A stretch of 64,000 nucleotides of DNA from Victivallales bacterium (GTDB taxonomy: Bacteria > Verrucomicrobiota > Lentisphaeria > Victivallales > UBA1829), in NCBI GenBank assembly GCA_045589595.1, contig JAZNPK010000011.1, forward strand, positions 341 to 64,340, read 5' to 3'. Of the stretch, positions 4,665 to 62,174 are shown piece after piece; the first letter of the stretch is position 1, and every line of letters begins with the position of its first letter. The notes under the pieces are model-generated. The model had not been told where the DNA came from and searched no databases. It saw only the letters and a list, made by a program, of their open reading frames with translations. Position numbers and translations under genes: made by a program.

Positions 4665-4746
4665 CTGTAAAATTCTCCTTTCACTGCAGATATAGCACAT
4701 ACGACAGTTTCTGCTGTGTAACCGGAGTATTGCAGACAGGTGAAAA

Positions 4747-6468: not shown

Positions 6469-6484
6469 TTTCTTGTTGCGGGAT

Positions 6485-6513
6485 TTGAAATGTCAGAAAA
6501 TGTATGCTATCGT
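6485..6513 (+). promoter_or_regulatory. Candidate promoter of the H-X9-DG prepilin-type gene
   Basis: TTGAAA (6485-6490), 17 nt (ending TGc), TATCGT (6508-6513). This would give a 5' UTR of about 100 nt. Confidence 0.35.
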
Positions 6514-7669: not shown

Positions 7670-7688
7670 CACACAGAGTGTGCCATAC

Positions 7689-7772
7689 CAGCGTTCCGCC
7701 GCTGGACCACGGCAAGGGCTCAGCCCTTGTCGTTGAGCAGAAAACTTGCACTCTGTGCCGCCTTTTCTGCCA
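7689..7772 (+). repeat. 84-nt three-hairpin repeat element, copy A (3' of the plus-strand gene)
   Basis: Three hairpins: CCAGCG-ttccgc-CGCTGG, CAAGGG-ctcag-CCCTTG and GCAGAAAA-N18-TTTTCTGC. Its reverse complement aligns with 7945-8027. Differences are concentrated in loops and linkers, and the stem arms I checked are conserved. Confidence 0.7.
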
Positions 7773-7944
7773 TAGTCAATGTTGCAGGCAACATTGACGG
7801 AATGGAATAAAATAGAATTCCAACGCACACTGTGTGTGCCGTATAGTGTCATCGCGTAACGCTCACGCTTACTTAATGGCACGATGAGGCAGAAAAAGCT
7901 TATCTGATTTTCACCGTTTTTGCAACGGGTTGCAAAAACTTACG

Positions 7945-8027
7945 GCAGAAAACACCGCACGAAGTGCAAGTTTTCTGCTCGCGTCAAGGGCCCTGCCCTT
8001 GCTGCGGTCCAGCGGCAGTCCGCTGGT
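7945..8027 (-). repeat. 83-nt three-hairpin repeat element, copy B (3' of the minus-strand gene)
   Basis: Inverted copy of 7689-7772. The same three stems are conserved, while loops differ (gactgc, caggg). It is oriented relative to its upstream gene in the same way as copy A. Confidence 0.7.
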
Positions 8028-8048
8028 CGCGCGAAGCGCGAAATACAC

Positions 8049-9014: not shown

Positions 9015-9030
9015 AGTCGGAGTTTCCTTT

Positions 9031-10080: not shown

Positions 10081-10090
10081 GAAAACAAGC

Positions 10091-10894
10091 TCAACTTCCT
10101 ATGCCGAGCCGGTAGGACAACCGTTCGGGCAACCCGGCGGCAATGATCTTCTGCTGGGCAGATCCAATGTCGTAGGGAACAACATAGCGCGTAATGACTC
10201 TTGCTTCGGAATCAAAAACGGCGAAAGATGCGCGCGGATCCCGGTTCCGGGGCTGTCCAACGCTGCCGACATTGACAAGATATTTGTATCCCGGCTGCAT
10301 TTCGAGGGGGAATTCCCCATCTTTCAGGGCGGTTTCCGCATCCACCTGGGGACTTGCCCATTCCGGAACTTCCTCAATGGGTTTTCCGGCGTGGAGGATC
10401 ACCGGTTTCTTGCAGAAGACCAGCGGTACATGGGAATGACCGCAGAAACAGAGGGGCGTAAACTGATACGTGAAGTTGTCGGCGGCATGATGGGTGTCGA
10501 AAATATAACCCCACGCTTCCGGACTGTCCAATGTGGCATGGACGACGGTGAAATTGGAGCCGCGGGGCGTGACACGCATCGGCAGATTTGCCAGATAGTA
10601 ACGGTCATCCCGGCTCAACTGGTGTTTTGTCCACAGGATCGCGGCGCGGGCGTGCTGATTGAATCCTTCCATGATCTCGTCATGGTTGGATGCAAATTCA
10701 TCGTGATTCCCCTTTACCACGGCAATAGGATTGAGGGAACGGAGCAAATCCAGACATTCCACCGGGTTCGCGCCGTAGCCGACTGTATCTCCGAGGGATA
10801 TATACTGATCCACGCCCAGTTCTGTGCATTTGGCGAGAACCGCCTGAAACGCCTCCAGATTGGCATGAATATCACTCAGGATCGCGTACTTCAT
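10091..10894 (-). CDS. Metallophosphoesterase family protein
   Basis: 267 aa with MKYAILSDIHAN, GDTVGYG, GNHD and GHSH metal-binding motifs. Confidence 0.85.
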   Translation of the reverse strand: MKYAILSDIHANLEAFQAVLAKCTELGVDQYISLGDTVGYGANPVECLDLLRSLNPIAVVKGNHDEFASNHDEIMEGFNQHARAAILWTKHQLSRDDRYYLANLPMRVTPRGSNFTVVHATLDSPEAWGYIFDTHHAADNFTYQFTPLCFCGHSHVPLVFCKKPVILHAGKPIEEVPEWASPQVDAETALKDGEFPLEMQPGYKYLVNVGSVGQPRNRDPRASFAVFDSEARVITRYVVPYDIGSAQQKIIAAGLPERLSYRLGIGS

Positions 10895-11044
10895 TTCTCT
10901 TCTCTTTCAAAACTTGGTTGACAACTGCTGATGAAACAATGGAAATATAACCCCCTTTTTACAATATGAAAGTGCAGATTGCGAAAAAAATGCAATTTTC
11001 TTTCCTGTTTTTTCAGAAAAAGCGTAAAAAGCGCTTGAAAATTG

Positions 11045-11073
11045 TGCAAATCGGTTTTATGTTTCACTGTGCG
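11045..11073 (+). promoter_or_regulatory. Candidate promoter of the pilus/secretion ATPase operon
   Basis: TTGAAA (11045-11050), 17 nt, TATGTT (11068-11073). It lies inside the 5' extension of the track ORF, which argues for the shorter start at 11119. Confidence 0.35.
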
Positions 11074-11118
11074 ATTATTATCGATTTTTTACGAGACGAA
11101 AGGATAAAGGTATTCACC

Positions 11119-12822
11119 GTGGCGGAGAACAGCGATTACATTTTGGAGCTCCTGACCGAATATGGCATGGTCACAGAGGAGCAGATCGATGAAGGATGGC
11201 AGAAAGTAGCCGATTCCGACGGAAGATTGGATATCGTCGATGCACTCCTGGAACTGCATTATATCGAACAGAGCGATATGATGGCGATGCTCGCCCAGCA
11301 ATATGGGCTTGAAACACTCGACCTGACCGGTTACGAGATCCCGGAAGAAGTTCTTGCTTCCGTTCCCGCTGAGGTGGTGCGGCAGTATAAAGTCGTTCCC
11401 GTGATGCTGCACGATGATGTGCTGACCATTGCCATGAGCGACCCCACTGACATGGAAACGCTGGACAGCCTCCGGTATGTGTTGAACCGCGATGTGGAAG
11501 CCGTTATCTCCCCTATCGAACAGATCCAGAAAGTGATCGACCAGCACTACGGGACCCTCGCGGACTCCGTCAACAACCTGCTCGACGGCATGGAAACCGG
11601 CGATCTTGAACAGGTTGAAGATGCCGATACCGGCAATGAAGCCACCGGCGATGATGCGCCGATCATCCGTCTGGTGTACCTGCTCATCACAGAAGCATAC
11701 AAACTCAAAGCATCGGATATTCATCTGGAACCGATGGAAAAACGGTTCCGCGTCCGCTACCGTATCGACGGTGTGCTGCGGGAAATGGAAAGTCCCCCGA
11801 AATATCTGCAGGCGAACATCATCTCCCGTATCAAGATCATGTCCCGTATGGATATTTCCGAAAAGCGTATCCCGCAGGACGGCCGTATTCAGGTGCGGGT
11901 GCAGAACAATGATATTGACTTGCGTGTATCTGACATCCCCACAACGCACGGCGAAAGTATCGTCATGCGTATTCTCGACAAGAGCAGTATCCAGCTGGAT
12001 ATCCCCCAGCTCGGTTTCTATACGGACGACCAGGAAAAAGTCGATAAGATCATCGGCTTCCCGGACGGTATCTTCCTCGTGACCGGACCGACGGGTTCCG
12101 GCAAGACCACCAGTCTTTACGCCTTCCTGAACGCCATCAACACGCCCAACCGCAAGATCATTACGGTGGAAGACCCGGTGGAATATCAGCTGGCGGGTAT
12201 CAATCAGGTGCAGGTGAACGCCCAGGTGCAGATGACCTTCGCCAATGCCCTCCGCGCAATGTTGCGTCAGGCGCCGAACATCATCATGGTTGGTGAAATC
12301 CGAGACCTGGAAACTGCCGAAATCGCCATCAACGCATCACTTACCGGTCACCTTGTGTTCAGTACGCTCCACACCAACGACGCGCCCAGTGCTGTGACGC
12401 GACTGATCGATATGGGCGTCAAGCCCTTCCTTGTGGCATCTTCTGTACGGGCGATCATGGCACAGCGTCTTGTGCGCCGCGTCTGCAAAAAATGCGCCGC
12501 GCCGTACACGCCCACGCCGGATGAGATCCGACTCCTCGGTCTGGATGAGGATTTTGTCAAAAATTCACAGTTCAAGAAGGGCCGCGGCTGTTCCGCCTGC
12601 GGCAATACCGGGTATAAAGGACGTATGGGTATCTATGAGATCTTCATTCTCGGTGAAGAGATCCAGAACCTGATTTACAGCAAGGCTGCATCCAATGTGA
12701 TCCGTGACGCCGCACGGAAGAGCGGGATGAGAACTCTGCGCGAAGACGGCCTCCGCAAAGCTGCGGCAGGTACGACCACCCTTGAAGAAGTCCTTGCCAC
12801 CACCATCGGCGACGCGAACTAA
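11119..12822 (+). CDS. GspE/PilB-family type IV pilus / type II secretion assembly ATPase (paralog 1)
   Basis: Has a T2SSE N-terminal domain, Walker A GPTGSGKTT, TGHLVFSTLHTND, and the tetracysteine CKKC...CSAC. I place the start at GTG 11119 (SD AAAGG 8 nt upstream). The track start at 10966 adds a lysine-rich, non-homologous extension. Confidence 0.9.
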   Translation: MAENSDYILELLTEYGMVTEEQIDEGWQKVADSDGRLDIVDALLELHYIEQSDMMAMLAQQYGLETLDLTGYEIPEEVLASVPAEVVRQYKVVPVMLHDDVLTIAMSDPTDMETLDSLRYVLNRDVEAVISPIEQIQKVIDQHYGTLADSVNNLLDGMETGDLEQVEDADTGNEATGDDAPIIRLVYLLITEAYKLKASDIHLEPMEKRFRVRYRIDGVLREMESPPKYLQANIISRIKIMSRMDISEKRIPQDGRIQVRVQNNDIDLRVSDIPTTHGESIVMRILDKSSIQLDIPQLGFYTDDQEKVDKIIGFPDGIFLVTGPTGSGKTTSLYAFLNAINTPNRKIITVEDPVEYQLAGINQVQVNAQVQMTFANALRAMLRQAPNIIMVGEIRDLETAEIAINASLTGHLVFSTLHTNDAPSAVTRLIDMGVKPFLVASSVRAIMAQRLVRRVCKKCAAPYTPTPDEIRLLGLDEDFVKNSQFKKGRGCSACGNTGYKGRMGIYEIFILGEEIQNLIYSKAASNVIRDAARKSGMRTLREDGLRKAAAGTTTLEEVLATTIGDAN

Positions 12823-12848
12823 TCTACAACGACGGAGAGAATGTAAAG

Positions 12849-14531
12849 ATGTTGGACCCGGAAAGTCAGTCCCTGAAAGATATCGTCCTCGCCAGCAATA
12901 TGGTGACCAAAGACCAGTTGATCGAGGTGGAGGAAGAATACGCCCGTACAGCCAAACCCCTGAAAGAACTTCTGATCAACTATGAGATCCTGACCGAAGA
13001 ACAGATCCTGGACCTGATCGCGTCCAGTCTGGGAATGGAGATCGTGGATCTCAGCCAGATGGAGATCGAAAAAAGCATCATCGACCTGATCCCGGCTGAT
13101 AATGCCCGTATGCTCGGCGCGATCCCGTTGGCATTTGACGGTATGACGATCACGGTCGCCGTCCGCAACCCCCTGAACTATCAGATCGCCGACGAACTGC
13201 GCTTCATGCTCGGCAAAGATGTGATGACCGTAGTGGCATCCGAAGCACAGATCGACAGCTGTCTGGAAAAATATTATCCCCTCGATCTCGGCTCCATGCA
13301 CGAAATGCTGGAAGAGATGAATCTGCAGGACGGCCTCAGCTCCCTGACGGATATTGATGCGGAAAGTGCTGCAAATGAAGCCCCGATCATCAAATTCGTG
13401 GACGCAGTTCTGTATCAGGCGGTGAAAGATAAAGCGTCTGACATCCATTTTGAGCCGTTTGAAAAAGAATTCAAGATCCGTTACCGTATCGACGGTGCGC
13501 TTTATGAAATGGCGCCTCCGCCCAAAAATCTGGCAGTTCCCGTGATCAGCCGTGTGAAGATCATGTCCAGTCTGAACATTTCCGAACGCCGGAAACCTCA
13601 GGACGGCCGTATCCAACTGAAAGTTGCCGGGAACCCCATCGACCTCCGTGTATCCACGCTGCCGACTCAGTTCGGGGAATCCGTGGTGCTTCGTGTGCTT
13701 GACCGCTCGGTTGTGAACCTGGACCTGGATATGCTCGGTATCAACGAACAGGTCCTTGCGAAGATCCGCGACATCATTTCCATGCCGAACGGTATCTTCA
13801 TCATTACCGGTCCTACCGGGTCCGGTAAGACCACCACCCTGTACTCCGCGCTCAAGGAGATCAACAAGGTGCAGGACAAGATCCTGACGGCGGAAGACCC
13901 TGTGGAATACGACTTGGAAGGGATCGTTCAGGTGCCGATCAACGATGCCATCGGGATGACCTTCGCCGCCGCGCTCCGTGCGTTCCTTCGTCAGGACCCG
14001 GACATTATCATGCTCGGTGAAACCCGAGACCTTGAATCTGCTGAAATGGCGGTTCAGGCATCGCTTACGGGACACCTTGTGTTCACGACCCTACACACCA
14101 ACGACGCCGCCGGTGCCATTACCCGACTGGTGGATATGGGCGTGGAACCCTTCCTTATCACATCGTCTCTGATCGGGATCCTCGGTCAGCGTCTTATCCG
14201 TAAGATCTGTACCGGCTGTAAAACGGCGTTTACGCCCACGGACGACGACCTTGCGGCGCTGGGGCTGAAACGGTCCGATATCGGCGACAATAAATTCTAT
14301 TACGGCAAGGGCTGCAGTCTCTGTCAGAATACCGGTTACAAAGGCCGGAAAGCCATTACGGAACTGCTTGCCATGAACTCCAAGATCAACGATCTGGTGC
14401 TTCAGAATGCACCGACCATCGTCATCCGCGATAAAGCCCGTGAACTCGGCATGGAAACCATGCGTGAAGACGGTATCCGCGCCATTCTCAATGGTGAAAC
14501 GACGATGGAAGAGATCCTGAAATATACATAA
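12849..14531 (+). CDS. GspE/PilB-family assembly ATPase (paralog 2)
   Basis: 560 aa with the same motif set (GPTGSGKTT, TGHLVFTTLHTND, CTGC...CSLC). SD GGAGAGAA lies upstream. Confidence 0.92.
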   Translation: MLDPESQSLKDIVLASNMVTKDQLIEVEEEYARTAKPLKELLINYEILTEEQILDLIASSLGMEIVDLSQMEIEKSIIDLIPADNARMLGAIPLAFDGMTITVAVRNPLNYQIADELRFMLGKDVMTVVASEAQIDSCLEKYYPLDLGSMHEMLEEMNLQDGLSSLTDIDAESAANEAPIIKFVDAVLYQAVKDKASDIHFEPFEKEFKIRYRIDGALYEMAPPPKNLAVPVISRVKIMSSLNISERRKPQDGRIQLKVAGNPIDLRVSTLPTQFGESVVLRVLDRSVVNLDLDMLGINEQVLAKIRDIISMPNGIFIITGPTGSGKTTTLYSALKEINKVQDKILTAEDPVEYDLEGIVQVPINDAIGMTFAAALRAFLRQDPDIIMLGETRDLESAEMAVQASLTGHLVFTTLHTNDAAGAITRLVDMGVEPFLITSSLIGILGQRLIRKICTGCKTAFTPTDDDLAALGLKRSDIGDNKFYYGKGCSLCQNTGYKGRKAITELLAMNSKINDLVLQNAPTIVIRDKARELGMETMREDGIRAILNGETTMEEILKYT

Positions 14532-14558
14532 TCTTATCCGGAAAGGTGATTTTGCATC

Positions 14559-15620
14559 ATGGTCGAAATGAATGAACTCCTCCAGGTGGTCGTGGATGAA
14601 GGCGCCAGTGACCTGCATCTTGAAGTCGGTGCCGCGCCGGTCGTACGTCTCCACGGCGCAATGACCCAGCTTGAACTGCCCCCGCTGCAGCCGGAAGATA
14701 CGGAACGGCTCATCCGCTCCATCGCCAATGAAAAACAGATCGAACAACTTATGACACAGGGCGGTTCCGACTTCGGTATCCCCTTCGGTGATCAAGCCCG
14801 TTTCCGTGTCAGTATTTTTCAACAGAAGGGATACTGGGGCGGCGTTCTCCGTCAGATCCCCAATACGCTCCTGCCGCTGGAAAAACTGGGATTGCCGCCC
14901 AGTATCAAGGACCTGCTTTACAAACCCCGCGGTCTGATCCTTGTGACGGGTCCCACCGGGTCCGGTAAATCTACAACTCTGGCTTCGCTGCTGGATATCA
15001 TCAACTCGGAACGTGCGTGCCACATCATCACGGTGGAAGACCCCATCGAATTTTATCACAAGCACAAACAGAGTATTGTGATGCAGCGTGAGATCGGGGC
15101 GGACGTGCCGAGTTTTGCGGAAGCGCTCCGCCGCGCACTGCGTCAGGACCCCGATATCATCCTCGTGGGGGAAATGCGCGACCTGGAAACCATTGAAGCC
15201 GCTATTACCGCTGCGGAAACCGGGCATCTGGTGTTCGGTACGCTGCATACCACCGGCGCCGCACGGACAGTTGACCGTATCGTTGACGCATTCCCCACCA
15301 ATCAGCAGGCGCAGATCCGTACGCAGCTCGCCTCATCGCTGGTGGCGGTGATCTCGCAGGTGCTTCTGCCCCGCGCTGACAGACCCGGCCGTGTGGCGGC
15401 GTTTGAGATCATGATCTCCACTCCGTCCATTCAGGCGTTGATCCGTGACAACAAGACGTACCGCATCACTTCAGACATCCAGACCGGTGCAAAATACGGT
15501 ATGAATACGCTGGATGCTCATCTGGCGGACCTTTACAGGACCGGTGCGATCACATACGGTGACATGATCACGATGGCGCAGGACAAAGAAGGTATTCTCG
15601 GTCTGCTCGGAATGAAGTAA
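14559..15620 (+). CDS. pilT: PilT-family twitching-motility / retraction ATPase
   Basis: 353 aa. Carries [28 protein letters not shown] and [12 protein letters not shown]. Confidence 0.9.
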
Positions 15621-15664
15621 TACCGGAACCACGAATCAGAAACGTTAACAGAAGGAGTTGAAAT

Positions 15665-16936
15665 ATGCCGCTTTATCAATACACAGCAATGGATGCTGCG
15701 GGCAAAGAGACCAAAGGCGTAAAGGACGCACCGAACGAAAACGCCGTTTCCAAATTTCTGAAAGAACAGGGGATGTTCCCCACAAGTATCAAAGTTGCCA
15801 CAGCCACGGCTTCCAAGGCAGTGGGCGGCGGTACGGAAAAGAAAAAATCCATTCTGAACCTTGAGATCAATATCGGTCCTCTGAAGATCGGTCCCAAAGA
15901 CCTGACGGTGCTGACGCGTCAGCTTTCCATTCTGCTGGAAGCCGGTCTGCCGCTGGTCCGTTCTCTCCGTACGCTGGAACGTCAGGCGAAAAACCCGGCG
16001 GTCCGGAAGATTTTGGGAAAAGTTGCCGCATCGGTGGAAGGCGGTTCCGGTTTTTCCGAAGCGCTTTCCCAGTTCCCTGCGTCCTTCGACAATCTCTATG
16101 TGAACATGGTGCGCGCCGGTGAAGCTTCCGGTAAACTGGACCTGATCCTCAGCCGTCTGGCGATGTTCCGTGAAAAAGCCGCCAAGATCGCCGGCAAAGT
16201 AAAATCCGCCATGACGTACCCGATCATCGTTCTGACCATTGCCATCGGTATGACCATCGGTCTTATGGTGGGTATCGTGCCGAAATTCCAGCAGATGTTC
16301 AACGACATGCTCGGCGGCGCGGAACTGCCGGCTCTGACCCAGTTGGTCATCGACATCTCCCAGTTCATGCAGGATCAGATCGTGCTGATCCTCATCGTCC
16401 TTGCAGGGTTTATCGTCGGGATCAAACTGATGGTCAAGACGAAAGCCGGACGACTTCTGGTGGACTCTGCAAAATTCAGAATGCCTCTTTTCGGCGACTT
16501 GATTTCCAAGAATGCCATTTCCCGTTTCGCCCGTACGCTCGGTACCCTTACCGGTTCTGCCGTGCCGGCTCTCGATGCCTTGAAAATCGTGCGCGATACT
16601 TCCGGTAACGCGTTGGTTTCCAAAGCAGTTCAGCAGGTGCATGACGCGGTGAAGGAAGGGGAAACCATGTCTGCCACACTTGCCAGTACCAAGATCTTCC
16701 CCGTGATGGTGGTCAGTATGATCGAGGTCGGTGAAGAAACGGCAAAGACACCTGAAATGCTGGAAAAGATCGCCGATACCTACGATGAAGAAGTGGACAA
16801 CGCCGTGGCGGCATTGACCTCCATGATCGAACCGCTGCTCATGGTATTTCTGGCTGTGGTGGTCGGCGGTATCGTTATCGCCCTCTTCATGCCGCTGATC
16901 AAGATCATCGAAACCCTCGGCGGCGGAGCTGCATAA
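15665..16936 (+). CDS. PilC/GspF-family inner-membrane platform protein
   Basis: 423 aa. The N-terminus MPLYQYTAMDAAGKETKG and the duplicated GspF-type domains with three TM segments are characteristic. Confidence 0.9.
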   Translation: MPLYQYTAMDAAGKETKGVKDAPNENAVSKFLKEQGMFPTSIKVATATASKAVGGGTEKKKSILNLEINIGPLKIGPKDLTVLTRQLSILLEAGLPLVRSLRTLERQAKNPAVRKILGKVAASVEGGSGFSEALSQFPASFDNLYVNMVRAGEASGKLDLILSRLAMFREKAAKIAGKVKSAMTYPIIVLTIAIGMTIGLMVGIVPKFQQMFNDMLGGAELPALTQLVIDISQFMQDQIVLILIVLAGFIVGIKLMVKTKAGRLLVDSAKFRMPLFGDLISKNAISRFARTLGTLTGSAVPALDALKIVRDTSGNALVSKAVQQVHDAVKEGETMSATLASTKIFPVMVVSMIEVGEETAKTPEMLEKIADTYDEEVDNAVAALTSMIEPLLMVFLAVVVGGIVIALFMPLIKIIETLGGGAA

Positions 16937-52871: not shown

Positions 52872-53372
52872 ATGACAGCAAAAAAAGCCGAAAAACCCGC
52901 AGCAGCGGATCATGACATCATCGCCCAGAACAAAAAGGCGTACCACGATTTTGAGATCCTCGAAAAAATGGAAGCCGGTCTGGAACTGCGGGGAACGGAA
53001 GTGAAAAGCTGCCGGATGCGTTCCGTTCAGCTGCAGGATGCTTTTGCCCGGGTCGAAAACGGCGAACTTTTTGCATTCGGGATCCATATTTCCCCCTATT
53101 CTCACGGCAACCGGTTCAACCATGAGGCTGTCCGCAGACGCCGTCTGCTGATGCACAAAAAAGAGATCCTCCGTCTTTTTCAGCGTGTGAACGAAAAAGG
53201 CTTTTCCCTGATCGTGCTGAAGATGTATCTGAAACGGGGCAGGGTGAAAGTGGAAATCGGTGTCGGCCGCGGCAAAACCTTCGGCGATAAACGCGAAACG
53301 CTGAAAAAGCGTCAGGATGATATGGATGCCAGAAGATTTCTCGGTACAAAACGCAAACAATTTCAGGATTGA
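52872..53372 (+). CDS. smpB: SsrA-binding protein
   Basis: 166 aa with IAQNKKAYHDFEILEKMEAGLELRGTEVKS. Confidence 0.93.
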   Translation: MTAKKAEKPAAADHDIIAQNKKAYHDFEILEKMEAGLELRGTEVKSCRMRSVQLQDAFARVENGELFAFGIHISPYSHGNRFNHEAVRRRRLLMHKKEILRLFQRVNEKGFSLIVLKMYLKRGRVKVEIGVGRGKTFGDKRETLKKRQDDMDARRFLGTKRKQFQD

Positions 53373-53380
53373 TCACCACC

Positions 53381-54874
53381 ATGCTGATCGAAACAAATCT
53401 TTTCCGCCGGACAACGACCGGTAATGTCTGGGAGGTGTTGAGGATCGCTTTTCCGCTGATCCTTGCATCTGCAGGTCACTCCATCAATCTTTTTGTGGAC
53501 CGTCTGATGCTTCAGCGTTTTTCCGAAGACGCCATGTCCGCCGCATTCCCGGCAGGTTTGACATGTTTTGCCATGATCTGTTATTTTGTGGGGACGGTCG
53601 GTTACGCCAACTCCTTTGTAGCTCAGTATTTCGGAGCGAAGATGTATCACCGTGTGGGTGCTGCTGTGTGGCAGGCTGTTTATATGGCGATCCTGGGCGG
53701 GATCTGGTCGGCTCTGCTCTGGTTCGCTGCGGAACCGCTGTTCGACTTTTTCGGTCATGCCCCGCATCTGCGGGAGATGGAAGTGACATATTTCCGTCTG
53801 CTCGCGCTGGGCGGTGTGATCCCGCTGCTGACCATTGCCCTTTGTGCGTTCTGGGGCGGACAGGGCAAAACGGGGATGGTGATGTTTGTGAATCTGCTTG
53901 TCACATTCTGCAACATTCCCTTCAATGCGGCGTTGATTTTCGGGGTGGATCTGCCCTGGCTCAAACTGCCCCGTCTGGGGATCGTCGGTGCTGCTTACGG
54001 GACCATTGCCGCCGGTTTTGTCGGCGTTCTGTTTATGGCGTTCTGCTTTTTCCTGAACCGGGCAAATGTGGTGCGGTTCCGGACATGGTCTGCTAAACTG
54101 GATAAAGATCTTTTTCTGCGTCTGTTCAAATTCGGCGGACCCAACGGCGTGCAGCTGTTTCTGGACCTTGCCGCCTTCAATGCCTTTGTGGTACTGCTGG
54201 GCAAAATCGGACCGGATGTACTGAATGCGTCCGGCGTGGCATTTTCCCTGAATTCTCTGGCGATGATCCCCATGTTCGGGTTCGGACAGGCGGTTTCCAT
54301 TCTGGTGGGACAGGGGATCGGTGCGTCCGATATTCCTTTTGCGGAGCGTGCGGTGAAGAGTGCCAGATTCTGGCTGTATCTGGTGATCGTCATTGTGGGT
54401 GTCCTGTTCCTGATCTATCCGGAACCGTCTCTGACGCTGTTCAAGCTGGAGCCGGGTACGCGTGCTTATGAACTGGCGGAGATCATGCTGCGGTACATTA
54501 CGGCATATCTGCTGTTCGATGCCACATCGATCCTCTACGGCAGCGCCATCAAAGGGGCGGGCGACACCCGTTTTTCCATGATCATCGGCGCATCTTTTGC
54601 GTGGGTCCTTTACGGTCTGCCCTGTCTGGCGGTTTACTTCTTTTTCGCCAGTGACTTTGCCATCGACTGGCTGGGAAAAGGTCTGGCAGACACGATCAAT
54701 CTCTGGACTTTGTGGGTCATTTGCGTGGCGTACATCATGATCCTGGGCGTGGTATTTTATCTGCGCTACCGGAACGGTGCGTGGAAAACCATGAAAGTCA
54801 TCGAAAGCGAACAGAACGATCATCCCCGCGGAGCCATTCCGAAAGAACACGGGGTGGATGCGTATCTGCCCTGA
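53381..54874 (+). CDS. MATE-family efflux transporter
   Basis: Twelve-TM profile with LRIAFPLILASAGHSINLFVDRLML. I chose ATG 53381. TTG 53369 (the track start, overlapping the smpB stop) is the alternative. Confidence 0.88.
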   Translation: MLIETNLFRRTTTGNVWEVLRIAFPLILASAGHSINLFVDRLMLQRFSEDAMSAAFPAGLTCFAMICYFVGTVGYANSFVAQYFGAKMYHRVGAAVWQAVYMAILGGIWSALLWFAAEPLFDFFGHAPHLREMEVTYFRLLALGGVIPLLTIALCAFWGGQGKTGMVMFVNLLVTFCNIPFNAALIFGVDLPWLKLPRLGIVGAAYGTIAAGFVGVLFMAFCFFLNRANVVRFRTWSAKLDKDLFLRLFKFGGPNGVQLFLDLAAFNAFVVLLGKIGPDVLNASGVAFSLNSLAMIPMFGFGQAVSILVGQGIGASDIPFAERAVKSARFWLYLVIVIVGVLFLIYPEPSLTLFKLEPGTRAYELAEIMLRYITAYLLFDATSILYGSAIKGAGDTRFSMIIGASFAWVLYGLPCLAVYFFFASDFAIDWLGKGLADTINLWTLWVICVAYIMILGVVFYLRYRNGAWKTMKVIESEQNDHPRGAIPKEHGVDAYLP

Positions 54875-54926: not shown

Positions 54927-54955
54927 TTGCAACGCTGTACTTTATGGTGTATTTT
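54927..54955 (+). promoter_or_regulatory. Candidate sigma-70-type promoter of the secretin / ABC operon
   Basis: TTGCAA (54927-54932), 17 nt, TATTTT (54950-54955), about 75 nt upstream of ATG 55031. Confidence 0.45.
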
Positions 54956-55030
54956 ACCCGCGTAAAGTCAACATAACCGGAGGATGCGGGTTCCCCACAC
55001 TGCGTCCGCCTCAGGAGTCAAACAGAAAAA

Positions 55031-56476
55031 ATGAAGAACCGTTGGATGCTTTTTGCCGGTATTCTCCTGTCCTGCACAGTGTTGCCGGCGCAGGAAACGA
55101 TCCGTGCGACCAATACCGGTAAAAATGATGCGTCGCTGACGATCAAGATCGGCGATCCCGCAGCAGATGCCGAAGCCGCAAAAAACAAAAAAAATGTGAT
55201 GGAACAGATGATGCGTCTGTTTCTGGAACGGACGCCGCCGACCGTTTTGAGTACGCGTCAGGTGAAAGAAGCCGCACCTGATTTCAAATTGATCCCCGGC
55301 AAAAACGGGATGGCAACATTGATTTACCGCTGCCGTTATGTGGATCCGGAATTTCTGACGGACTCCCTTGATGCAGTCGTGACCGATGCGGGTTACGTGG
55401 AACTGGTCAAGAAACTCGGCTCGGAAGCCAATGAATACAGCCTCATCGTCGTTCACGACAAAGCGGACAAGATGGATGAAATGAAAAAGATCCTTGTGGG
55501 TCTTGATGCACTTCAGCCCCAGGTCCTGGTGGAAGCACAGATCATCGAAGTCTATTCCGAACAGGGCGCGGAACGGGATGTCCGGCTGACCTATGAATAT
55601 TACGATGCCAAATACGACACGACCAACCGTTTCGGTTTCAATCTGGATTCTCCCGTGCAGAACCGCAGTGCCACGGCGGATCAGGGCGGCGGCATGAACT
55701 TTGTTCCCTTTGCCCACAATTCCTCCGACGGCTCCACCGGCAGACTGAATGCCGCCATCCGTTGGCTCAATACCAGCCGGAATGCCCGTATCCTTTCCGC
55801 GCCGAATGTGATCGCGGATCAGGGTGCGGAAGCCACCATCACCACGGCGGAAGAACTGCCGATCCCGGAATCCAGCACCAGCTCCTCCAGCACCAACCTG
55901 TCGATCAAATACAAACAGGTGGGTGTGACGCTGAAGATCACGCCTAAAATGATCAACGACAAAACGGTCCAGCTTTCTGTGAATCCCCAGGTCCGTTCGG
56001 TGCTGCGTTACGAAACGTTCAAAATGAATGAAGTCGTCAGCAACATCCCGGTGATCTCCCTGCGCAGTGTGGATACCCGGTTGACGGTCGCAGACGGCGA
56101 CATCATCATTCTCGGCGGTCTTTACAACAGTGAAAAGGCGGAGACCCTGCGGAAAGTGCCGTTCTTCGGTGATATTCCGGTGTTGAGCGATCTGGTGAAC
56201 GGCCGTGACTCCAGCAGTGTTGACAAACAGCTGCTGTTTCTGCTGAAAGTACACATTATCCATCCGTTCAAGGCGGAAACGGTGAATCTGGAATCGACAT
56301 CCGACGAGATCCACAAGGCATCCGAGATCCTTGAGCAGTCCCGGAAACTCTTTACCAACAAGCCCGCATCGGAATTTGTGGATGTGGAAGCTCTGCTGCA
56401 TAAAGAATCCATAAACCGTCAGACTGCGGAAGAACTGAAGAAAGCTGCTGAAGCTTCAGAGTCCAAGCCTGAGTAA
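55031..56476 (+). CDS. Secretin-family outer-membrane channel (short, single N-domain)
   Basis: 481 aa. Signal peptide MKNRWMLFAGILLSCTVLPAQE. Secretin domain: QVLVEAQIIEV...ILSAPNVIADQGAEATITT...KVPFFGDIPVLSDLV. Confidence 0.88.
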   Translation: MKNRWMLFAGILLSCTVLPAQETIRATNTGKNDASLTIKIGDPAADAEAAKNKKNVMEQMMRLFLERTPPTVLSTRQVKEAAPDFKLIPGKNGMATLIYRCRYVDPEFLTDSLDAVVTDAGYVELVKKLGSEANEYSLIVVHDKADKMDEMKKILVGLDALQPQVLVEAQIIEVYSEQGAERDVRLTYEYYDAKYDTTNRFGFNLDSPVQNRSATADQGGGMNFVPFAHNSSDGSTGRLNAAIRWLNTSRNARILSAPNVIADQGAEATITTAEELPIPESSTSSSSTNLSIKYKQVGVTLKITPKMINDKTVQLSVNPQVRSVLRYETFKMNEVVSNIPVISLRSVDTRLTVADGDIIILGGLYNSEKAETLRKVPFFGDIPVLSDLVNGRDSSSVDKQLLFLLKVHIIHPFKAETVNLESTSDEIHKASEILEQSRKLFTNKPASEFVDVEALLHKESINRQTAEELKKAAEASESKPE

Positions 56477-56489
56477 AGGCAGGTGACCC

Positions 56490-58001
56490 ATGAAAATCAT
56501 CAGAAAGATCATTACGACCCTTCTGCTGCTGGGCATCCTCGGCGCAGGCGGCTGGTACGGATACCGTTACTGGCAGCAGAAACGGGCGAACCTGCAGGAA
56601 AAAAGTGAAAAATCCCCGGATAAACTTTTCACGGTGAAACGGGGCGATCTCTCCATCGGGATCCTTCTTTCCGGCAGCGTCAATACCAAAGTCAAACACA
56701 AACTGGCGCTTGAAGTCCCCATGTCCACCAAACTGGTGGCTGTGGTGGATGAAAACGCCAAAGTCACCAAGGGGGAGATCGTTGCCCGTTTTGAAACGGA
56801 ATCCCTCCAGACCACCATTGACGATTTGAAGATCAGCATTGCCGACGGAGAAAAAAATCTCCAGCTTGCCAGAGAGGAACTCGCCATTCTGGAAAGTGCC
56901 AATGCCGCCGACCTCAAAACCGCCAAAGACAATCTGGATGACGCCATTTCCGCGTACAACAAGTACCGGAAACTGGAAGGACCCAAAAACAAAAACCAGC
57001 AGGACCAGAGTGTGTCCGATGCCTATCAGAAACTGCAGGATGCGGAAACAGCGTATCAGACCGCTTATGACGCCTACTACAATCCTTCCGATGTGGCAAA
57101 GGATGAAGCCGAGGAGGAATCCCGGAAGAAAACATACGAATCTGCACTCAAGAGCCGGAAAAGCGCCCGGATCACCTATCAGAACGCCATTCTTGACCGG
57201 AAGATCTTCAAGCGTTATACCCAGCCGAACAACTACAAGACCGCCCTTGACAAAGTGCAGCGTCTGGAACTGACTCTGAAAAAAGAGATCGTCCGCACGC
57301 AGTCCAGTCACGCCCAGAAGGTGTCCGCGGTGAAAAATGCGGAGATCAACCTGCGGAAGAAAGAGCGCGATCTGGAACAGAAACTTTATTTCATGTCCCG
57401 GATGCAGCTCGTTGCGCCGGTGGATGGTTTTGTGACATACGGGGACCCGGAACGTACCCGCTGGGGTAAAATCGACGTCAAGATCGGTATGGATGTGCAT
57501 CGCCGTCAGACGCTTGCCACGATCCCGGATATGAGCCGGATGGTGATCGATGTGGATATTCCCGAACAGTACCGGTCGAAAGTCCGTACCGGTGCGTCTG
57601 TGATCATTACGCCGGACTCTGTTCAGAATGTGAAGATCCACGGCTGCCTCACTCATATTGCCCCGCTGCCGATCCTGTTGATCCCCTGGGACCCGAAGAG
57701 TGCCAAAGTGTACAAGTCCACTGTGGATTTTTCCAGCGACGATCCGCGTATTGTCAGCGGTATCAGCGTGAAGGCGGATATTATTTCCCAGACGCTGAAC
57801 AATGTGCTTTTCATTCCGGTGGAAGCCGTGTTTGAAAAAGGCGGTCAGTTCTATGTTTACCGCGACAACGGATCCGATCCGGAAGAAGTGGTTGTGGAGA
57901 TCGGGCTTGCCAACGATATGTATGTAGAGATCAAGAACGGGCTCAACGAAGGGGATGTTGTCTATCTTTACCGCCCCTTCCAACAGGATAAGACCGAATA
58001 A
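56490..58001 (+). CDS. Membrane-fusion / periplasmic adaptor protein (HlyD/MacA-like, long coiled-coil hairpin)
   Basis: 503 aa. N-terminal TM anchor, lipoyl-like halves (KVTKGEIVARF...) flanking a coiled coil of about 200 aa, then a C-terminal beta-barrel. Confidence 0.85.
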   Translation: MKIIRKIITTLLLLGILGAGGWYGYRYWQQKRANLQEKSEKSPDKLFTVKRGDLSIGILLSGSVNTKVKHKLALEVPMSTKLVAVVDENAKVTKGEIVARFETESLQTTIDDLKISIADGEKNLQLAREELAILESANAADLKTAKDNLDDAISAYNKYRKLEGPKNKNQQDQSVSDAYQKLQDAETAYQTAYDAYYNPSDVAKDEAEEESRKKTYESALKSRKSARITYQNAILDRKIFKRYTQPNNYKTALDKVQRLELTLKKEIVRTQSSHAQKVSAVKNAEINLRKKERDLEQKLYFMSRMQLVAPVDGFVTYGDPERTRWGKIDVKIGMDVHRRQTLATIPDMSRMVIDVDIPEQYRSKVRTGASVIITPDSVQNVKIHGCLTHIAPLPILLIPWDPKSAKVYKSTVDFSSDDPRIVSGISVKADIISQTLNNVLFIPVEAVFEKGGQFYVYRDNGSDPEEVVVEIGLANDMYVEIKNGLNEGDVVYLYRPFQQDKTE

Positions 58002-58005
58002 GATC

Positions 58006-58734
58006 ATGAGCGGTACACCCTATGCATTGAAAATGGACGGTCTGATCAAGACCTATTACACCGGTTCTGTCAGTGTTCCGGTGCTGAAAGGGATCGATCT
58101 GCAGGTGCCGCGGGGGGAATTCCTCGGCATTATGGGATCTTCCGGATCCGGTAAGTCCACCATGCTGAATATTCTCGGTCTGTTGGACAAACCCACCGGC
58201 GGCAGTTACATTCTGGATGGCTACCGCGTGGAAACGCTGGACGATGCCACGCTGACGGATCTGCGTAATACCCGGATCGGTTTTATTTTTCAGGCGTTCA
58301 ATTTGTTTCCTCATCTTACGGTGCAGGAAAATATTGAAGTGCCAATGGTTTATGCAGGCGTTTCCAAACGGATCCGCCGGAAGATCGCAGTGGAAAATGC
58401 CACCCGCGTGAAACTGGCGCACCGCCTTGATCACAAACCCACCCAGTTGTCCGGCGGTGAAATGCAGCGTGTTGCCATTGCAAGATCTCTGGTGAACAGC
58501 CCCACATTTCTGCTGGCGGACGAACCGACGGGGAACCTGGACGAAAAAACCGGTGACGAGATCATGGAACTGTTCCACGAACTCCACCGTCAGGGTGTGA
58601 CGATCGTGATGGTCACGCACAACCCGACGTATGAATTTCATTATGACCGCGTGGTCTATCTCCGGAACGGACAAGTCGGTAAAGTCATTGATGTCAAGAA
58701 CGGCAAGACCACGGAATATGAGGTGAAACTGTGA
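58006..58734 (+). CDS. ABC transporter ATP-binding protein (MacB/LolD type)
   Basis: Start at ATG 58006. Walker A GSSGSGKST, signature LSGGEMQRVAIARSL and Walker B LLADEPTGNLD. Confidence 0.92.
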   Translation: MSGTPYALKMDGLIKTYYTGSVSVPVLKGIDLQVPRGEFLGIMGSSGSGKSTMLNILGLLDKPTGGSYILDGYRVETLDDATLTDLRNTRIGFIFQAFNLFPHLTVQENIEVPMVYAGVSKRIRRKIAVENATRVKLAHRLDHKPTQLSGGEMQRVAIARSLVNSPTFLLADEPTGNLDEKTGDEIMELFHELHRQGVTIVMVTHNPTYEFHYDRVVYLRNGQVGKVIDVKNGKTTEYEVKL

Positions 58735-59996
58735 GATTTTCAGATCAGCTTCAGCTTTCCTTTCATAACCTGATGCTTCACAAGATCCGGTCCATCCTCA
58801 CTTCGCTGGGGATCATTTTCGGGGTGGGCAGCGTGATCGCCATGCTTTCCATTTCCGAGGGCGCGAAGGAACAGGCGCTTGCCACCATTGAAGAAATGGG
58901 GATCGACAAGATCATTATCTCCTCCCGCAAGCCGCCTATGGAAGGTAAAGATACATCCAACTCCTCCACCACGACCCAGACATACGGATTGACCAAGTCG
59001 GATCTGGAGCATATCCGTGAAATGGATAACGTGAAAAAAGTCACGGTGGCGCGGAACACCCGCCAGAGAGTCGTCAAAGGCGTTACCATGCTGGAGTTGT
59101 CACTGGTCGGTGTGGACTATGATTTTCTGGAAGAAAGCAATTCCAATGTGATCCAGGGGCGATGGCTCAGCCACACGGATTATGCCATGACCACCGCCAA
59201 CTGTGTGGTGGGACGCAATGTGAAACGGAAACTGTTCAATCTGGGCGACCGCGAAATCGTCGGTGCGCAGCTGCGGATCGAAGACCATGTGTACAATGTG
59301 GTGGGGATCGCAGAAAACAATCACGGCACCAACATCAAAGGCGTCGGCAGACCGGATGATATGATCATGATCCCCATTACCACGGCGTTTGCAAAATACG
59401 GCAACCGCGCCACCACGGTCTCCACAGGGTCCCTTCAGGTGGAGGAAGTGGAATATGACACCTTCATCGTGACGGTGCAGGATACATTTTACATCGATTA
59501 TACCAGCAAACGCATCTCCGCATATCTGGATAAAGTCCACGGGGAACAGCGTGACTGGGAAAAAGTCGTTCCCTTCGATCTGCTTCTCCAGAAGGAAAAG
59601 ACCCAGAACATCTTTACCATCGTTATGGCGTCCATTGCCGGTATTTCTCTGCTGGTCGGCGGGATCGGTATTATGAACATCATGCTCGCCAACGTTTATG
59701 AACGGCGGAAAGAGATCGGTACACGCCGCGCACTCGGCGCACAGAAAAAGGACATCATCACTCAGTTCCTGCTGGAAACGATCTTCCTGACGTTTATGGG
59801 CGGTGCCATGGGGGTCGGGATCGGTGTCGGTATTGCCGCGATGGTGGCGAAATATGCAGCAATGCCCGTTTCATTCTCGCCGTGGTTTATTATGCTGGCG
59901 TTGGTGATCTCTGCCGCGATCGGTATTCTGTTCGGTACTTATCCTGCGTGGAAAGCCGCTCAGCAGAATCCCATTGACGTACTCCGGGCGGAGTGA
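58731..59996 (+). CDS. ABC transporter permease, MacB/FtsX family
   Basis: 421 aa. N-terminal TM, large periplasmic domain and a C-terminal FtsX three-TM bundle. The GTG start overlaps the ATPase stop (GTGA). Confidence 0.9.
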   Translation: MRFSDQLQLSFHNLMLHKIRSILTSLGIIFGVGSVIAMLSISEGAKEQALATIEEMGIDKIIISSRKPPMEGKDTSNSSTTTQTYGLTKSDLEHIREMDNVKKVTVARNTRQRVVKGVTMLELSLVGVDYDFLEESNSNVIQGRWLSHTDYAMTTANCVVGRNVKRKLFNLGDREIVGAQLRIEDHVYNVVGIAENNHGTNIKGVGRPDDMIMIPITTAFAKYGNRATTVSTGSLQVEEVEYDTFIVTVQDTFYIDYTSKRISAYLDKVHGEQRDWEKVVPFDLLLQKEKTQNIFTIVMASIAGISLLVGGIGIMNIMLANVYERRKEIGTRRALGAQKKDIITQFLLETIFLTFMGGAMGVGIGVGIAAMVAKYAAMPVSFSPWFIMLALVISAAIGILFGTYPAWKAAQQNPIDVLRAE

Positions 59997-59999: not shown

Positions 60000-61148
60000 T
60001 TATTTCGTTTCTTCTGCCGGAACGGTGATCTCAAGCCAGTCGCCTTCGGACCAGAAGGAGATTTTTTCCGGTGATGCCGGATCCCGGTAATACATCAGCA
60101 GCCGCAGATCGGGAAATTCTTTTTTCATCGCCTGATAAAACGCGGTGTCGTGTCCGCGTACAAAAAATGCGGTGGAAAGAGCGTCAGCATCCACTGCCCG
60201 TTTTGTGATCACGGTCACGGAAAGGACGCCGGATACAGGCATCCCGGTGGCGGGATCCACGATGTGGGCGTATTGTTTGCCGTCAATGGTCACATACCGT
60301 TCATAATTTCCGCTGGTGGATATGCTTTCCCCGAGGATCTTTGCCGTTGCGCAATGGTTGAGGGAACGGGGCGCAACAGGATTCCGCACGGCTGCGATAT
60401 ATGCCTCCTGTTTCGGCGGAGCCTCATCCAGTGCGATCACATTGCCGCCCACATCCACGAAGCCCCGGTTCAGCGGGGAAAGACGGTTGTTGAAACGCGC
60501 TTCCAGATATTTCATCCAGGAGACATCTCCGGAAAGTTCGGTGCCGACAGCCGTTTTATCGCGCAGTTTTTCCGCCGCCAGATCCAATGCCGCGCCTTTG
60601 GCAATGCCGCCGAGATCGATCGACATCCCTTCCACTGTGAAACGGACGGTCTTTGCCTGATCGTCAAAAATGATTTTATCCATCCCGACTTTCTTTTTTG
60701 CTTCGGCGATCGCTTCGGCAGTGGGCAGTTTTTTCTCTTTGCGGTGGAAACCCCAGAGTTTCATCAGCGGCTCGATGGTCACATCGAATGCGCCGTTGGA
60801 GAGCAGATACATCCGTCTGGCATCATTCAGCAGACCCCAGAGTTCATCAGAACAGCGGAAGGGTTCTTTGTATGCGGTGCTGTTCAATTTTGCCAGTTCG
60901 CTTTCCGGATCAAAACGGTTGCAGCGCATATTGACTTCCCGGAAGGCGGACTGAACAAGGTTTGCCGCCGGAGCAAGTGCGTTGGTATCCCGGACATAAA
61001 AACGGAATTTGACAAAGGTGGACATGCTTGCAAAACTCATATCCTGCCAGTAGATCTTTTTTTCGGAGAGGACCATGTGGGCGATCAGCAGACCGACCAG
61101 CGCGAATGCCAATACACGGAAAATACGTTTGAGAATACTTTTTGTCAT
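60000..61148 (-). CDS. apbE: FAD:protein FMN transferase (ApbE family)
   Basis: 382 aa. N-terminal anchor plus the SIDLGGIAKGAALD motif. Confidence 0.88.
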   Translation of the reverse strand: MTKSILKRIFRVLAFALVGLLIAHMVLSEKKIYWQDMSFASMSTFVKFRFYVRDTNALAPAANLVQSAFREVNMRCNRFDPESELAKLNSTAYKEPFRCSDELWGLLNDARRMYLLSNGAFDVTIEPLMKLWGFHRKEKKLPTAEAIAEAKKKVGMDKIIFDDQAKTVRFTVEGMSIDLGGIAKGAALDLAAEKLRDKTAVGTELSGDVSWMKYLEARFNNRLSPLNRGFVDVGGNVIALDEAPPKQEAYIAAVRNPVAPRSLNHCATAKILGESISTSGNYERYVTIDGKQYAHIVDPATGMPVSGVLSVTVITKRAVDADALSTAFFVRGHDTAFYQAMKKEFPDLRLLMYYRDPASPEKISFWSEGDWLEITVPAEETK

Positions 61149-61165: not shown

Positions 61166-62059
61166 TCAGGCGCGTGGATGAAATGTTTTGTGGACCGTCA
61201 TCAGACGCCGTTTGTCCACATGTGTATAGATTTGGGTCGTACTGATATCCGCATGTCCCAGCATTTCCTGGATCACACGGAGATCCGCCCCGTTTTCCAG
61301 CAGATGACTGGCAAATGAATGGCGCAATGTGTGGGGATGGATGTTCTTCCGGATGCCTGCGATCCGGGCTGCTTCCTTCACCACCTGCCAGATCCGTTCA
61401 CGGTCAAGCTGTTCTCCCCGGTACGAAAGAAACAGATAAGGCGATTCCTTCGTTTTCAGGAGCATCGGGCGTGCTTTGTCAAGATAAAGACGCAGGATCG
61501 ACAATGCCGTTCTGCCCACGGGGACCAGCCGTTCCTTGTCGCCTTTGCCGATCACCCGGACAAGTGCCTCGTCGAACCGGATCGCTCCGTTCTGGAGCGT
61601 GGCACATTCCGAAACGCGCAATCCGCTCGCGTAAAGCAGTTCCAGAATACACCGGTTCCGCAATGTCAGCGGTTCTTTGCTGTTTTTCGGATACGCGTTC
61701 AGGAGGGCGTCCACCTCGGCAGAAGAAAGAAAATCCGGCAGGATCCGCCACAGTTTGGGCGAAGACATGACATCCGTAATATCGGCGGGGATCATCCGTT
61801 CCTGAAAAAGATATTGGAAAAATGCCTTGATCGCCACCAGACGGCGGGCAATACTCGCACCTTCCAGACCGTTGTCTTTGCACCGGTCCAGATAATCCAT
61901 GATCAGATCACGGGTCACGCCGTCATAAGACGCAATACCGCCGGTACGCAGAAAGGAAACGAAATCAACGAGATCGGAACGATAAGCCAGAACGGTGTTT
62001 TCACTGCAGCCGCGTTCAATGGAAAGAAATCCGGTAAAGTGGGATATAACGCGTTCCAT
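61166..62059 (-). CDS. Tyrosine recombinase, XerC/XerD family
   Basis: Start at ATG 62059, 297 aa. N-terminal SAM-like domain (FLSIERGCSENTVLAYRSDL) and catalytic HTLRHSFASHLLENGADLRVIQEMLGHADISTTQIYTHV. The track ORF extension runs into the tRNA. Confidence 0.88.
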   Translation of the reverse strand: MERVISHFTGFLSIERGCSENTVLAYRSDLVDFVSFLRTGGIASYDGVTRDLIMDYLDRCKDNGLEGASIARRLVAIKAFFQYLFQERMIPADITDVMSSPKLWRILPDFLSSAEVDALLNAYPKNSKEPLTLRNRCILELLYASGLRVSECATLQNGAIRFDEALVRVIGKGDKERLVPVGRTALSILRLYLDKARPMLLKTKESPYLFLSYRGEQLDRERIWQVVKEAARIAGIRKNIHPHTLRHSFASHLLENGADLRVIQEMLGHADISTTQIYTHVDKRRLMTVHKTFHPRA

Positions 62060-62097
62060 AAACTCCCTCGGGATGCGGTCGCCGCTTTGAAAAAAAG

Positions 62098-62174
62098 TGG
62101 CGGGAGCGACGGGACTCGAACCCGCAACATCCACCGTGACAGGGTGGCACTCTAACCAATTGAGCTACGCCCCC
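62098..62174 (-). tRNA. tRNA-Asp (anticodon GTC), CCA encoded
   Basis: Folded by hand. Acceptor GGGGGCG/CGCTCCC, D arm GCTC-AATTGGTTA-GAGT, anticodon arm CCACC-CTGTCAC-GGTGG, T arm GCGGG-TTCGAGT-CCCGT, discriminator G, then CCA. 77 nt. Confidence 0.92.

Follow-up and report, generated by a model that had tools for sequence, protein, structure and literature searches.

A conserved operon joins a short secretin to a MacAB-type ABC pump in Victivallales and other PVC bacteria

Results

A four-gene operon for a secretin, an adaptor, an ATPase and a permease

The DNA analysed here is a stretch of 64,000 nucleotides from a Victivallales bacterium (GenBank assembly GCA_045589595.1, contig JAZNPK010000011.1), referred to below as the window. 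Its subject is a plus-strand operon in which a secretin gene is followed by the genes for a MacA-like periplasmic adaptor, an ATP-binding cassette (ABC) ATPase and a MacB-type permease. The operon probably marks an undescribed envelope-spanning exporter, a tripartite ABC pump whose outer-membrane component belongs to a different class. Its genes are closely packed, with successive gaps of 13 nt and 4 nt and a 4-nt overlap, and the open reading frames (ORFs) and their domains are as follows, in window coordinates.

55031-59996, plus strand: four-gene operon (secretin, adaptor, ATPase and permease ORFs)
55031..56476, plus strand: secretin, 481 aa, first gene of the operon; Pfam PF00263 at residues 246-410
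55031..55096, plus strand: Sec-type signal peptide, residues 1-22, MKNRWMLFAGILLSCTVLPAQE; modelled by AlphaFold2 (AF2) as a hydrophobic helix at the N-terminus
55157..55225, plus strand: family-specific N-terminal helix, residues 43-65, from AF2 and the homologue alignment
55280..55510, plus strand: sole periplasmic N-domain, residues 84-160, N3-like, from the AF2 strand/helix pattern at 84-158
55511..56260, plus strand: secretin pore domain, residues 161-410, with an invariant GGL motif at 362-364
56288..56461, plus strand: C-terminal helices, residues 420-436 and 452-477, at the S-domain position (AF2)
56490..58001, plus strand: MacA-like periplasmic adaptor (membrane-fusion protein) of 503 aa that begins with a transmembrane (TM) helix (Pfam/NCBIfam)
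56799..57398, plus strand: two-tier alpha-helical hairpin domain, adaptor residues 104-303 (~200 residues), from AF2 and alignment
58006..58734, plus strand: ABC ATPase, 242 aa, MacB/LolD/DarD type, from NCBIfam and motifs read in the translation
58731..59996, plus strand: type VII ABC (MacB-type) permease, 421 aa, with TM1, a periplasmic core domain and an FtsX TM2-4 bundle

The first gene product matches the Pfam secretin domain PF00263 (TCDB family 1.B.22; E = 2.5e-37; 128 bits against a cut-off of 27.5). It has a C-terminal pore domain, hydrophobic residues 1-22 and at least one periplasmic N-domain. The NCBIfam models for GspD, PilQ, MshL and SctC match it only below threshold: GspD reaches 140 bits where its cut-off is 351, starting at residue 134 and covering model positions 308-590 of 600, and PilQ reaches 127 bits where 284 is required. 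A full-length GspD or PilQ match above the curated cut-off, with domains N0-N3, was not obtained. An AF2 monomer model, built on 16 family members and of moderate confidence (predicted local distance difference test, pLDDT, 68), contains the signal-peptide helix, the helix at 43-65, a single beta-alpha N-domain at 84-158, a beta-rich region at 164-410 and the C-terminal helices. Foldseek comparison of this model with the Protein Data Bank (PDB) returned 40 significant matches, all of them secretins (GspD, PulD, PilQ, InvG, BfpB, RcpA and pIV, including 7ofh), while the best PDB matches by sequence were RcpA and GspD at ~80 bits. Both the AF2 model and the alignment to the GspD model leave the protein without N0, N1 and N2 domains. 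Given the secretin-only structural matches, the PF00263 domain and the absence of N0-N2, the protein is a genuine but minimal secretin.

Among its homologues the Secretin_N domain (PF03958) gives faint or weak matches. The helix at 43-65 is moderately conserved (0.40), with V56 invariant and L63 nearly so, and the helix at 420-436 is also moderately conserved. The signal sequence contains an LLSC motif; its cysteine is not conserved in the homologue alignment, so a lipoprotein assignment was rejected and the secretin is probably not lipidated. A search of 5.8 billion proteins delimits a distinct secretin subfamily of 48 clusters at E <= 1e-48 (31-100% identity), beyond which matches drop to E 1e-20 and to generic secretins. 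The classical secretins GspD from type II secretion systems (T2SS), PilQ of type IV pili (T4P), RcpA/CpaC of Tad and InvG of the type III secretion system (T3SS) share with it the pore domain and the adjacent N3-like domain. Unlike them, the window secretin has no N0, N1, N2, AMIN, BON or STN modules, its scores against the NCBIfam equivalogs lie far below the cut-offs, and the neighbourhood of the cassette holds no type IV filament or T3SS genes.

The adaptor matches the families HlyD_D23, HlyD_3 and RND_mfp. Its AF2 model (pLDDT 85) comprises an N-terminal TM helix and lipoyl, beta-barrel, membrane-proximal and helical domains, and its best Foldseek matches are MacA chains (9qgy_G, 4dk0 and 5nik_D; MacAB-TolC), followed by AcrA and EmrA. 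The hairpin is built of helices 104-161, 163-197, 206-239 and 246-303, and the kinks carry the conserved motifs YRKLEGP (158-164) and FKRYTQPN (240-247), which are the most conserved part of the helical domain.

The ATPase has its best NCBIfam matches in MacB (E = 3.3e-70), DarD and LolD, and its motifs are intact (Walker A GSSGSGKST, signature LSGGE, Walker B LLADEPT and the H-loop). We place its start at the ATG at 58006, which gives the 4-nt gap and from which homologues align from residue 1; the longest ORF, from 57955, would overlap the adaptor gene. The permease contains MacB_PCD (PF12704, E = 1.1e-29) and FtsX (PF02687, E = 1.7e-26) and aligns to positions 253-647 of the NCBIfam MacB model. 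The three proteins together have the composition of a MacAB-type pump: a permease with MacB core and FtsX domains, an ATPase of the MacB/LolD clade and a MacA-like adaptor with a hairpin.

Compared with Escherichia coli MacAB-TolC (PDB 5NIK), the adaptor has the same arrangement of N-terminal TM helix, lipoyl, beta-barrel, membrane-proximal and alpha-hairpin parts, the permease likewise combines MacB_PCD with a four-helix FtsX bundle, and the ATPase is nearest to MacB/LolD/DarD. The two systems differ as follows. ATPase and permease are separate in the window and fused in E. coli; the helical domain of the window adaptor comprises ~200 residues in two tiers, whereas the entire E. coli adaptor has 371 aa; and the outer-membrane gene of the window operon encodes a secretin, not a TolC-family protein.

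A preliminary description of this DNA, made by reading the sequence, had listed four genes with gaps of 13, 4 and -4 nt, and all four were recovered as plus-strand ORFs at the coordinates given there. Its account of the secretin as a signal peptide, one small N-domain and a canonical secretin C-domain is supported by Pfam, AF2 and Foldseek. The 503-aa adaptor with a very long coiled-coil hairpin that it reported corresponds to the MacA-like fold with its ~200-residue helical domain, and Pfam and NCBIfam agree with its assignment of a MacB/LolD-type ATPase and a MacB/FtsX-type permease with a periplasmic domain.

The gene order is conserved across three PVC phyla

Conservation of the cassette was examined from the secretin side by scanning one genome per GTDB species with a family alignment, and the best 80 of 121 relatives were inspected, with cassettes called at each genome locus by tblastn with the window proteins. 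The full cassette, in the same order, is present in 63 of the 64 loci that have enough downstream DNA; a contig end truncates the other 16 of the 80, whose remaining part agrees with this order. Compared with the window proteins, the secretins at these loci have a median identity of 37%, the adaptors 46%, the ATPases 66% and the permeases 59%. The taxa concerned are Lentisphaeria, with Victivallales, including Victivallis vadensis (loci L046, L070 and L074), and Lentisphaera, together with four Kiritimatiellota and two Phycisphaerae (one of the Sedimentisphaeraceae). Cultured or complete genomes with the cassette include V. vadensis, Lentisphaerota strain zth2 (CP071032.1) and OY787460.1 (Victivallales). 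At the single locus with another order (L027:4476-6621), a peptidase M28 gene comes directly after the gene for a family secretin of 412 aa, and CNNM/CorC genes on the other strand come next.

The reverse test, a metagenome scan with the adaptor alignment, yielded 61 loci at >= 36% identity, and a family secretin lies directly 5' of the adaptor gene in all 51 that have enough upstream DNA. The genome and metagenome samples partly overlap, some contigs coming from the same assemblies. The preliminary description had asked whether the order persists outside this genome, and at all but one of the testable loci of the two scans it does: secretin, adaptor, ATPase and permease follow one another at more than 100 loci with unrelated flanks in Lentisphaerota, Kiritimatiellota and Phycisphaerae, that is, in three phyla of the Planctomycetes-Verrucomicrobia-Chlamydiae (PVC) group.

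At the edge of the family, all of five divergent secretin homologues (31-44% identity) are followed by genes for a ~500-aa adaptor, an ABC ATPase and a MacB_PCD plus FtsX permease. The flanks of these five loci differ wholly from one another, and their Pfam-annotated neighbourhoods contained neither a gene of the outer-membrane efflux protein (OEP)/TolC family nor T4P or T2SS genes. When ORFs within 4 kb of 104 cassettes were clustered in search of a linked substrate, pilotin or regulator, the most frequent family occurred at 11 of the 104. With no recurrent neighbour family, the cassette is a self-contained four-gene unit. Pairwise distance matrices of the four proteins from 101 cassettes correlate with r = 0.87-0.93, the highest values (r = 0.93) being those of the secretin-adaptor and adaptor-permease pairs, which shows that the four genes are inherited together, with no swapping of partners.

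A wider association of the secretin was sought with a profile search of 1.84 billion representatives, which gave ~20 clusters at >= 400 bits and, as a second tier, short secretins of 390-500 aa that score 170-320 bits. Six of the second-tier proteins were checked. L167 has the order secretin, adaptor, ATPase, permease, and L174:187-4478 has secretin, adaptor and MacB-type permease genes with no ATPase gene in between; in L170 and L171 pump genes are not adjacent to the secretin gene, and the two other contigs are too short to show neighbours. The link between secretin and pump therefore reaches past the core family, and does not extend to all short secretins. In L174 the permease gene is followed by a 333-aa ORF without a Pfam match.

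An OEP gene occupies the same slot in the nearest other operons

The metagenome scan also returned distant adaptor relatives (20-28% identity; L148 and L150-L155), probably from other PVC or soil bacteria. An OEP/TolC-family gene lies directly 5' of the adaptor gene in all seven that show the upstream gene, and ATPase and permease genes lie downstream in six of the seven, L155 being cut inside the adaptor gene. The OEP assignment rests on PF02321 in L152 (E = 4.7e-37) and L153 (E = 3.8e-43) and on phmmer in the others. These operons resemble the window operon in gene order, with the outer-membrane component first, and in their homologous adaptor, ATPase and permease; they differ in their first gene, which encodes an OEP (PF02321) and not a secretin. 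Since the nearest operons outside the family read OEP, adaptor, ATPase, permease, the window secretin fills the slot of the outer-membrane factor. The expectation in the preliminary description that a TolC-like duct belongs in this position is thereby borne out by the closest relatives.

The long two-tier helical domain recurs in the OEP-linked adaptors together with both kink motifs (LEGPK, and Y..P with an invariant proline), their distal hairpin being ~10 residues shorter. The long two-tier hairpin is ancestral. The idea that it is an adaptation for reaching a short secretin was rejected, as OEP-linked adaptors have the same two-tier domain and kinks and as conservation is lowest in the distal hairpin. 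One of these operons, L152:3499-7470, contains two tandem adaptor genes, the first of which encodes a 788-aa protein with HlyD domains and a weak OEP-like segment.

In a neighbour-joining tree of the permeases with E. coli MacB as root, one clade (bootstrap 100) unites every secretin-linked permease, that of the divergent L167 among them, and the OEP-linked permeases, represented by five sequences only, fall outside it. The cassette probably arose from an OEP-adaptor-ATPase-permease operon, or shares an ancestor with one, the first gene having been exchanged. Such an exchange of OEP for secretin would have occurred once, in an ancestor within the PVC group, and Lentisphaerota, Kiritimatiellota and some Phycisphaerae would since have passed the cassette on as one unit.

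L135 (64% GC; metagenome contig Ga0310690_10029732) is the only cassette locus examined that has an OEP gene in its flanks. This gene (366-1847; PF02321, E = 8e-51) gives the order OEP-secretin-adaptor-ATPase-permease. Its product scores <= 33 bits by BLAST against the OEPs of the sister operons, which are 28-72% identical to one another. An interpretation of L135 as a transitional form that retains the ancestral OEP is not supported, its OEP being unrelated to those of the sister group.

Longer secretins and pilus genes in the window and in related genomes

A pilus/T2SS-like motor operon lies 38 kb from the cassette, at 10966-16936. Its products are a PilT-like ATPase, a GspF/PilC-like platform protein and a pair of GspE/PilB-like ATPases of 618 and 560 aa that each contain MshEN domains; the ORFs just 5' of the operon (6620-10921) have no Pfam match. 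No secretin was found in this motor operon, in agreement with the preliminary description, and searches with purpose-built hidden Markov models (HMMs) found neither a second secretin nor a TolC/OEP-like ORF in the window, so that the earlier report of no TolC-like gene at this place holds over the full 64 kb.

Related genomes encode further secretins. In L041, tandem secretin-domain genes for proteins of 630 and 533 aa lie on the other strand a few kb 5' of the cassette, and similar tandem genes were seen in L030 and L065 by weaker secretin-HMM matches. This tandem family occurs widely among Victivallales, and its V. vadensis members bear the annotation GspD. A Victivallis contig (L166, 1-11665) carries tandem 502- and 554-aa secretins as well as an 849-aa secretin, the latter in an operon with PilM and Amuc_1100/Amuc_1102-like pilus genes that resembles the Akkermansia-type pilus cluster. 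Type IV filament genes (GspC-M, PilMNOP) were seen in none of the five Pfam-annotated neighbourhoods of divergent homologues of the cassette secretin, and in the window the motor genes lie 38 kb off. The cassette secretin is one of several paralogues, the one that lost N0-N2.

Flanking sequences of the operon and other features of the window

Two signal-like elements border the operon.

54927..54955, plus strand: promoter-like motif TTGCAA-17 nt-TATTTT, in the 156-nt gap 5' of the secretin gene
59980..59995, plus strand: terminator-like hairpin at the operon end

The first of these had been put forward in the preliminary description as the promoter. The motif is present at that position, but it agrees with the consensus at only 8 of 12 positions and was not reported by a sigma-70 scan that needs at least 9 of 12; it is therefore no evidence of a promoter or of function. 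An Rfam search for an upstream riboswitch or leader gave nothing credible (best match E = 0.91). Downstream, the unit is closed by a convergent ApbE gene at 60000-61148. Upstream, 156 nt away and on the same strand, lies a gene for a MATE-family efflux transporter (53369-54874), an adjacency that is not kept at other cassette loci.

Elsewhere in the window, positions 1-6500 have a GC content of 0.41-0.45, against ~0.54 in the remainder, and look like an integrated mobile element. On the minus strand this segment has genes for a non-specific endonuclease (1727-2557) and a large serine recombinase (2849-4537); a second large serine recombinase is encoded on the plus strand (4747-6468), and a HipA-like kinase at 456-1697. 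Near the other end, within 61166-62174, a minus-strand gene for a XerC/D-type tyrosine recombinase ends beside a tRNA-Asp gene (62098-62174, minus strand).

Discussion

We lean, with somewhat more than even confidence, towards a reading in which the secretin is the dedicated outer-membrane component of a single envelope-spanning, ABC-driven exporter. The cassette is most simply read as one outer-membrane component having replaced another like for like, since the sister operons place an OEP duct where the cassette has its secretin. The preliminary description had offered, as one of two possibilities, an ABC/adaptor module docked to a secretin pore; the conserved order and the OEP slot speak for it, while the docking itself is argued from genomics, the direction of transport and the type of cargo are likewise inferred, and the hairpin has turned out not to be secretin-specific.

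The engine of such an exporter would be a type VII (MacB-type) ABC transporter with ATPase and permease as separate polypeptides. By analogy with mechanotransmission in E. coli MacAB-TolC, ATP-driven movements of the permease would be passed to its periplasmic core domain, which would push a periplasmic substrate into the tube formed by the MacA-like adaptor. This tube would dock to the N-domain ring of the dedicated short secretin instead of to a TolC-family trimer, and the substrate would leave through the outer membrane by the gated multimeric secretin pore. Since TolC ducts are far narrower than secretin pores, we expect the cargo to be most likely bulky; a folded periplasmic protein, a large glycolipid or a polymer is our best guess.

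Several observations weigh against this interpretation. Among the periplasmic parts of the adaptor, conservation is lowest in the distal hairpin and its tip, which a fixed contact between adaptor tip and secretin would not predict, and the long hairpin, common to OEP-linked relatives, is no adaptation to a secretin. In L135 a lipoprotein-type OEP gene lies 46 nt 5' of the secretin gene on the same strand; OEPs thus exist in this lineage and may be used, and a TolC-type partner supplied in trans is possible. L027, the sole exception to the gene order, carries the secretin without pump genes, adaptor and ABC genes being absent within 5.8 kb. Solved secretin rings are gated and have 12-15 subunits, so a hexameric adaptor would have to match such a ring and something would have to open the gate. 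Finally, the macAB operon of E. coli also lacks tolC, and a missing OEP gene in an operon is accordingly no proof of another exit.

Of the other explanations, the one that survives best, though we consider it unlikely, is that the MacAB-like module supports the secretin, by delivering or extracting an assembly factor in the manner of LolCDE and a pilotin or by controlling the gate, while the pore serves another process. Strict co-inheritance fits any obligatory partnership, and both the poorly conserved distal hairpin and the OEP carried by L135 besides its secretin suit this view. Type VII ABC proteins are also known to do periplasmic work other than transport, as in FtsEX-EnvC, LolCDE-LolA and YbbAP-TesA (PMC12646458). 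On the other side stand the complete four-domain MacA architecture of the adaptor with its tube-forming hairpin, the lack of any conserved pilotin or accessory gene in or beside the cassette at 104 loci, and the OEP duct that sister operons hold in the position of the secretin.

Slightly less probable still is that, like E. coli MacAB, the pump has as its partner a TolC-family protein whose gene lies elsewhere, and that the secretin is an independent pore kept in the same transcription unit. The tolC-free macAB operon of E. coli and the OEP gene of L135 give this explanation its footing. Against it, order and tight spacing survive down to ~30% secretin identity and across three phyla while every flank changes, which would not be expected of a chance or purely regulatory linkage; the OEP-linked sister operons encode their outer-membrane partner in cis and in the same slot, and secretin and adaptor distances correlate at r = 0.93.

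The second possibility in the preliminary description, that the secretin is the pore of the T4P/T2SS-like machine at 10966-16936 and merely co-transcribed with an unrelated pump, could appeal to a motor operon without a secretin, to the lack of another secretin within the 64-kb window and to the ABC transporter genes pilGHI that Myxococcus xanthus needs for its type IV pili, but it is weakened to the point of being very improbable, because the protein lacks N0-N2, N0 being the part through which T2SS and T4P secretins contact GspC- or PilP-type partners, because related Lentisphaerota encode longer secretins (849 aa beside PilM and Amuc_1100/1102-like genes, and tandem 502/554 aa proteins annotated GspD in Victivallis), and because no T4P/T2SS genes lie beside the five divergent cassettes and no family recurs across loci. 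For the window organism itself this reading keeps a small probability.

The exporter that we favour would have a partial precedent in filamentous phages, where the short secretin pIV, which is among the structural matches of the window secretin (7ofh), works with an inner-membrane ATPase, pI/pXI, outside the type IV filament and T3SS families. pI/pXI is, however, no ABC transporter and has no membrane-fusion adaptor, and pIV keeps N0, whereas the cassette combines an ABC transporter and an adaptor with a secretin that lacks this domain. MacB-type tripartite pumps are not confined to drugs as cargo: the dispersin exporter AatPABCD handles a small protein and PvdRT-OpmQ a siderophore. Both differ from the cassette in using TolC-like outer-membrane proteins (PMC12646458). 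The outer-membrane partners that a 2025 account of type VII ABC systems gives for tripartite pumps are all TolC-like (PMC12646458). The preliminary description had known of no characterised secretin-MacAB system, and we likewise found no description of one in the searchable full-text literature, in which subscription journals are thinly covered, so that this is absence of evidence only.

To our knowledge, tripartite ABC, RND and MFS pumps exit only through TolC-family ducts, and secretins serve only type IV filament machines, injectisomes (T3SS) and filamentous phages. A conserved operon joining a secretin to a tripartite pump would, if our reading is right, break both rules, and it would be a natural case of an outer-membrane module swapped between secretion systems. 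Docking, if shown, would define a new class of secretin-dependent machine. In its full form, as a pseudopilus-free trans-envelope machine of PVC bacteria that is driven by a type VII ABC transporter through an adaptor and carries bulky or folded periplasmic cargo, we put this proposal forward tentatively, at slightly less than even confidence. It raises the structural question of how a tube of six adaptor subunits could join a gated secretin ring, of 12-15 subunits in solved structures, and open it. In Lentisphaerota, Kiritimatiellota and Phycisphaerae, which degrade polysaccharides in gut and sediment, such a machine could explain part of the transit of large cargo across the outer membrane.

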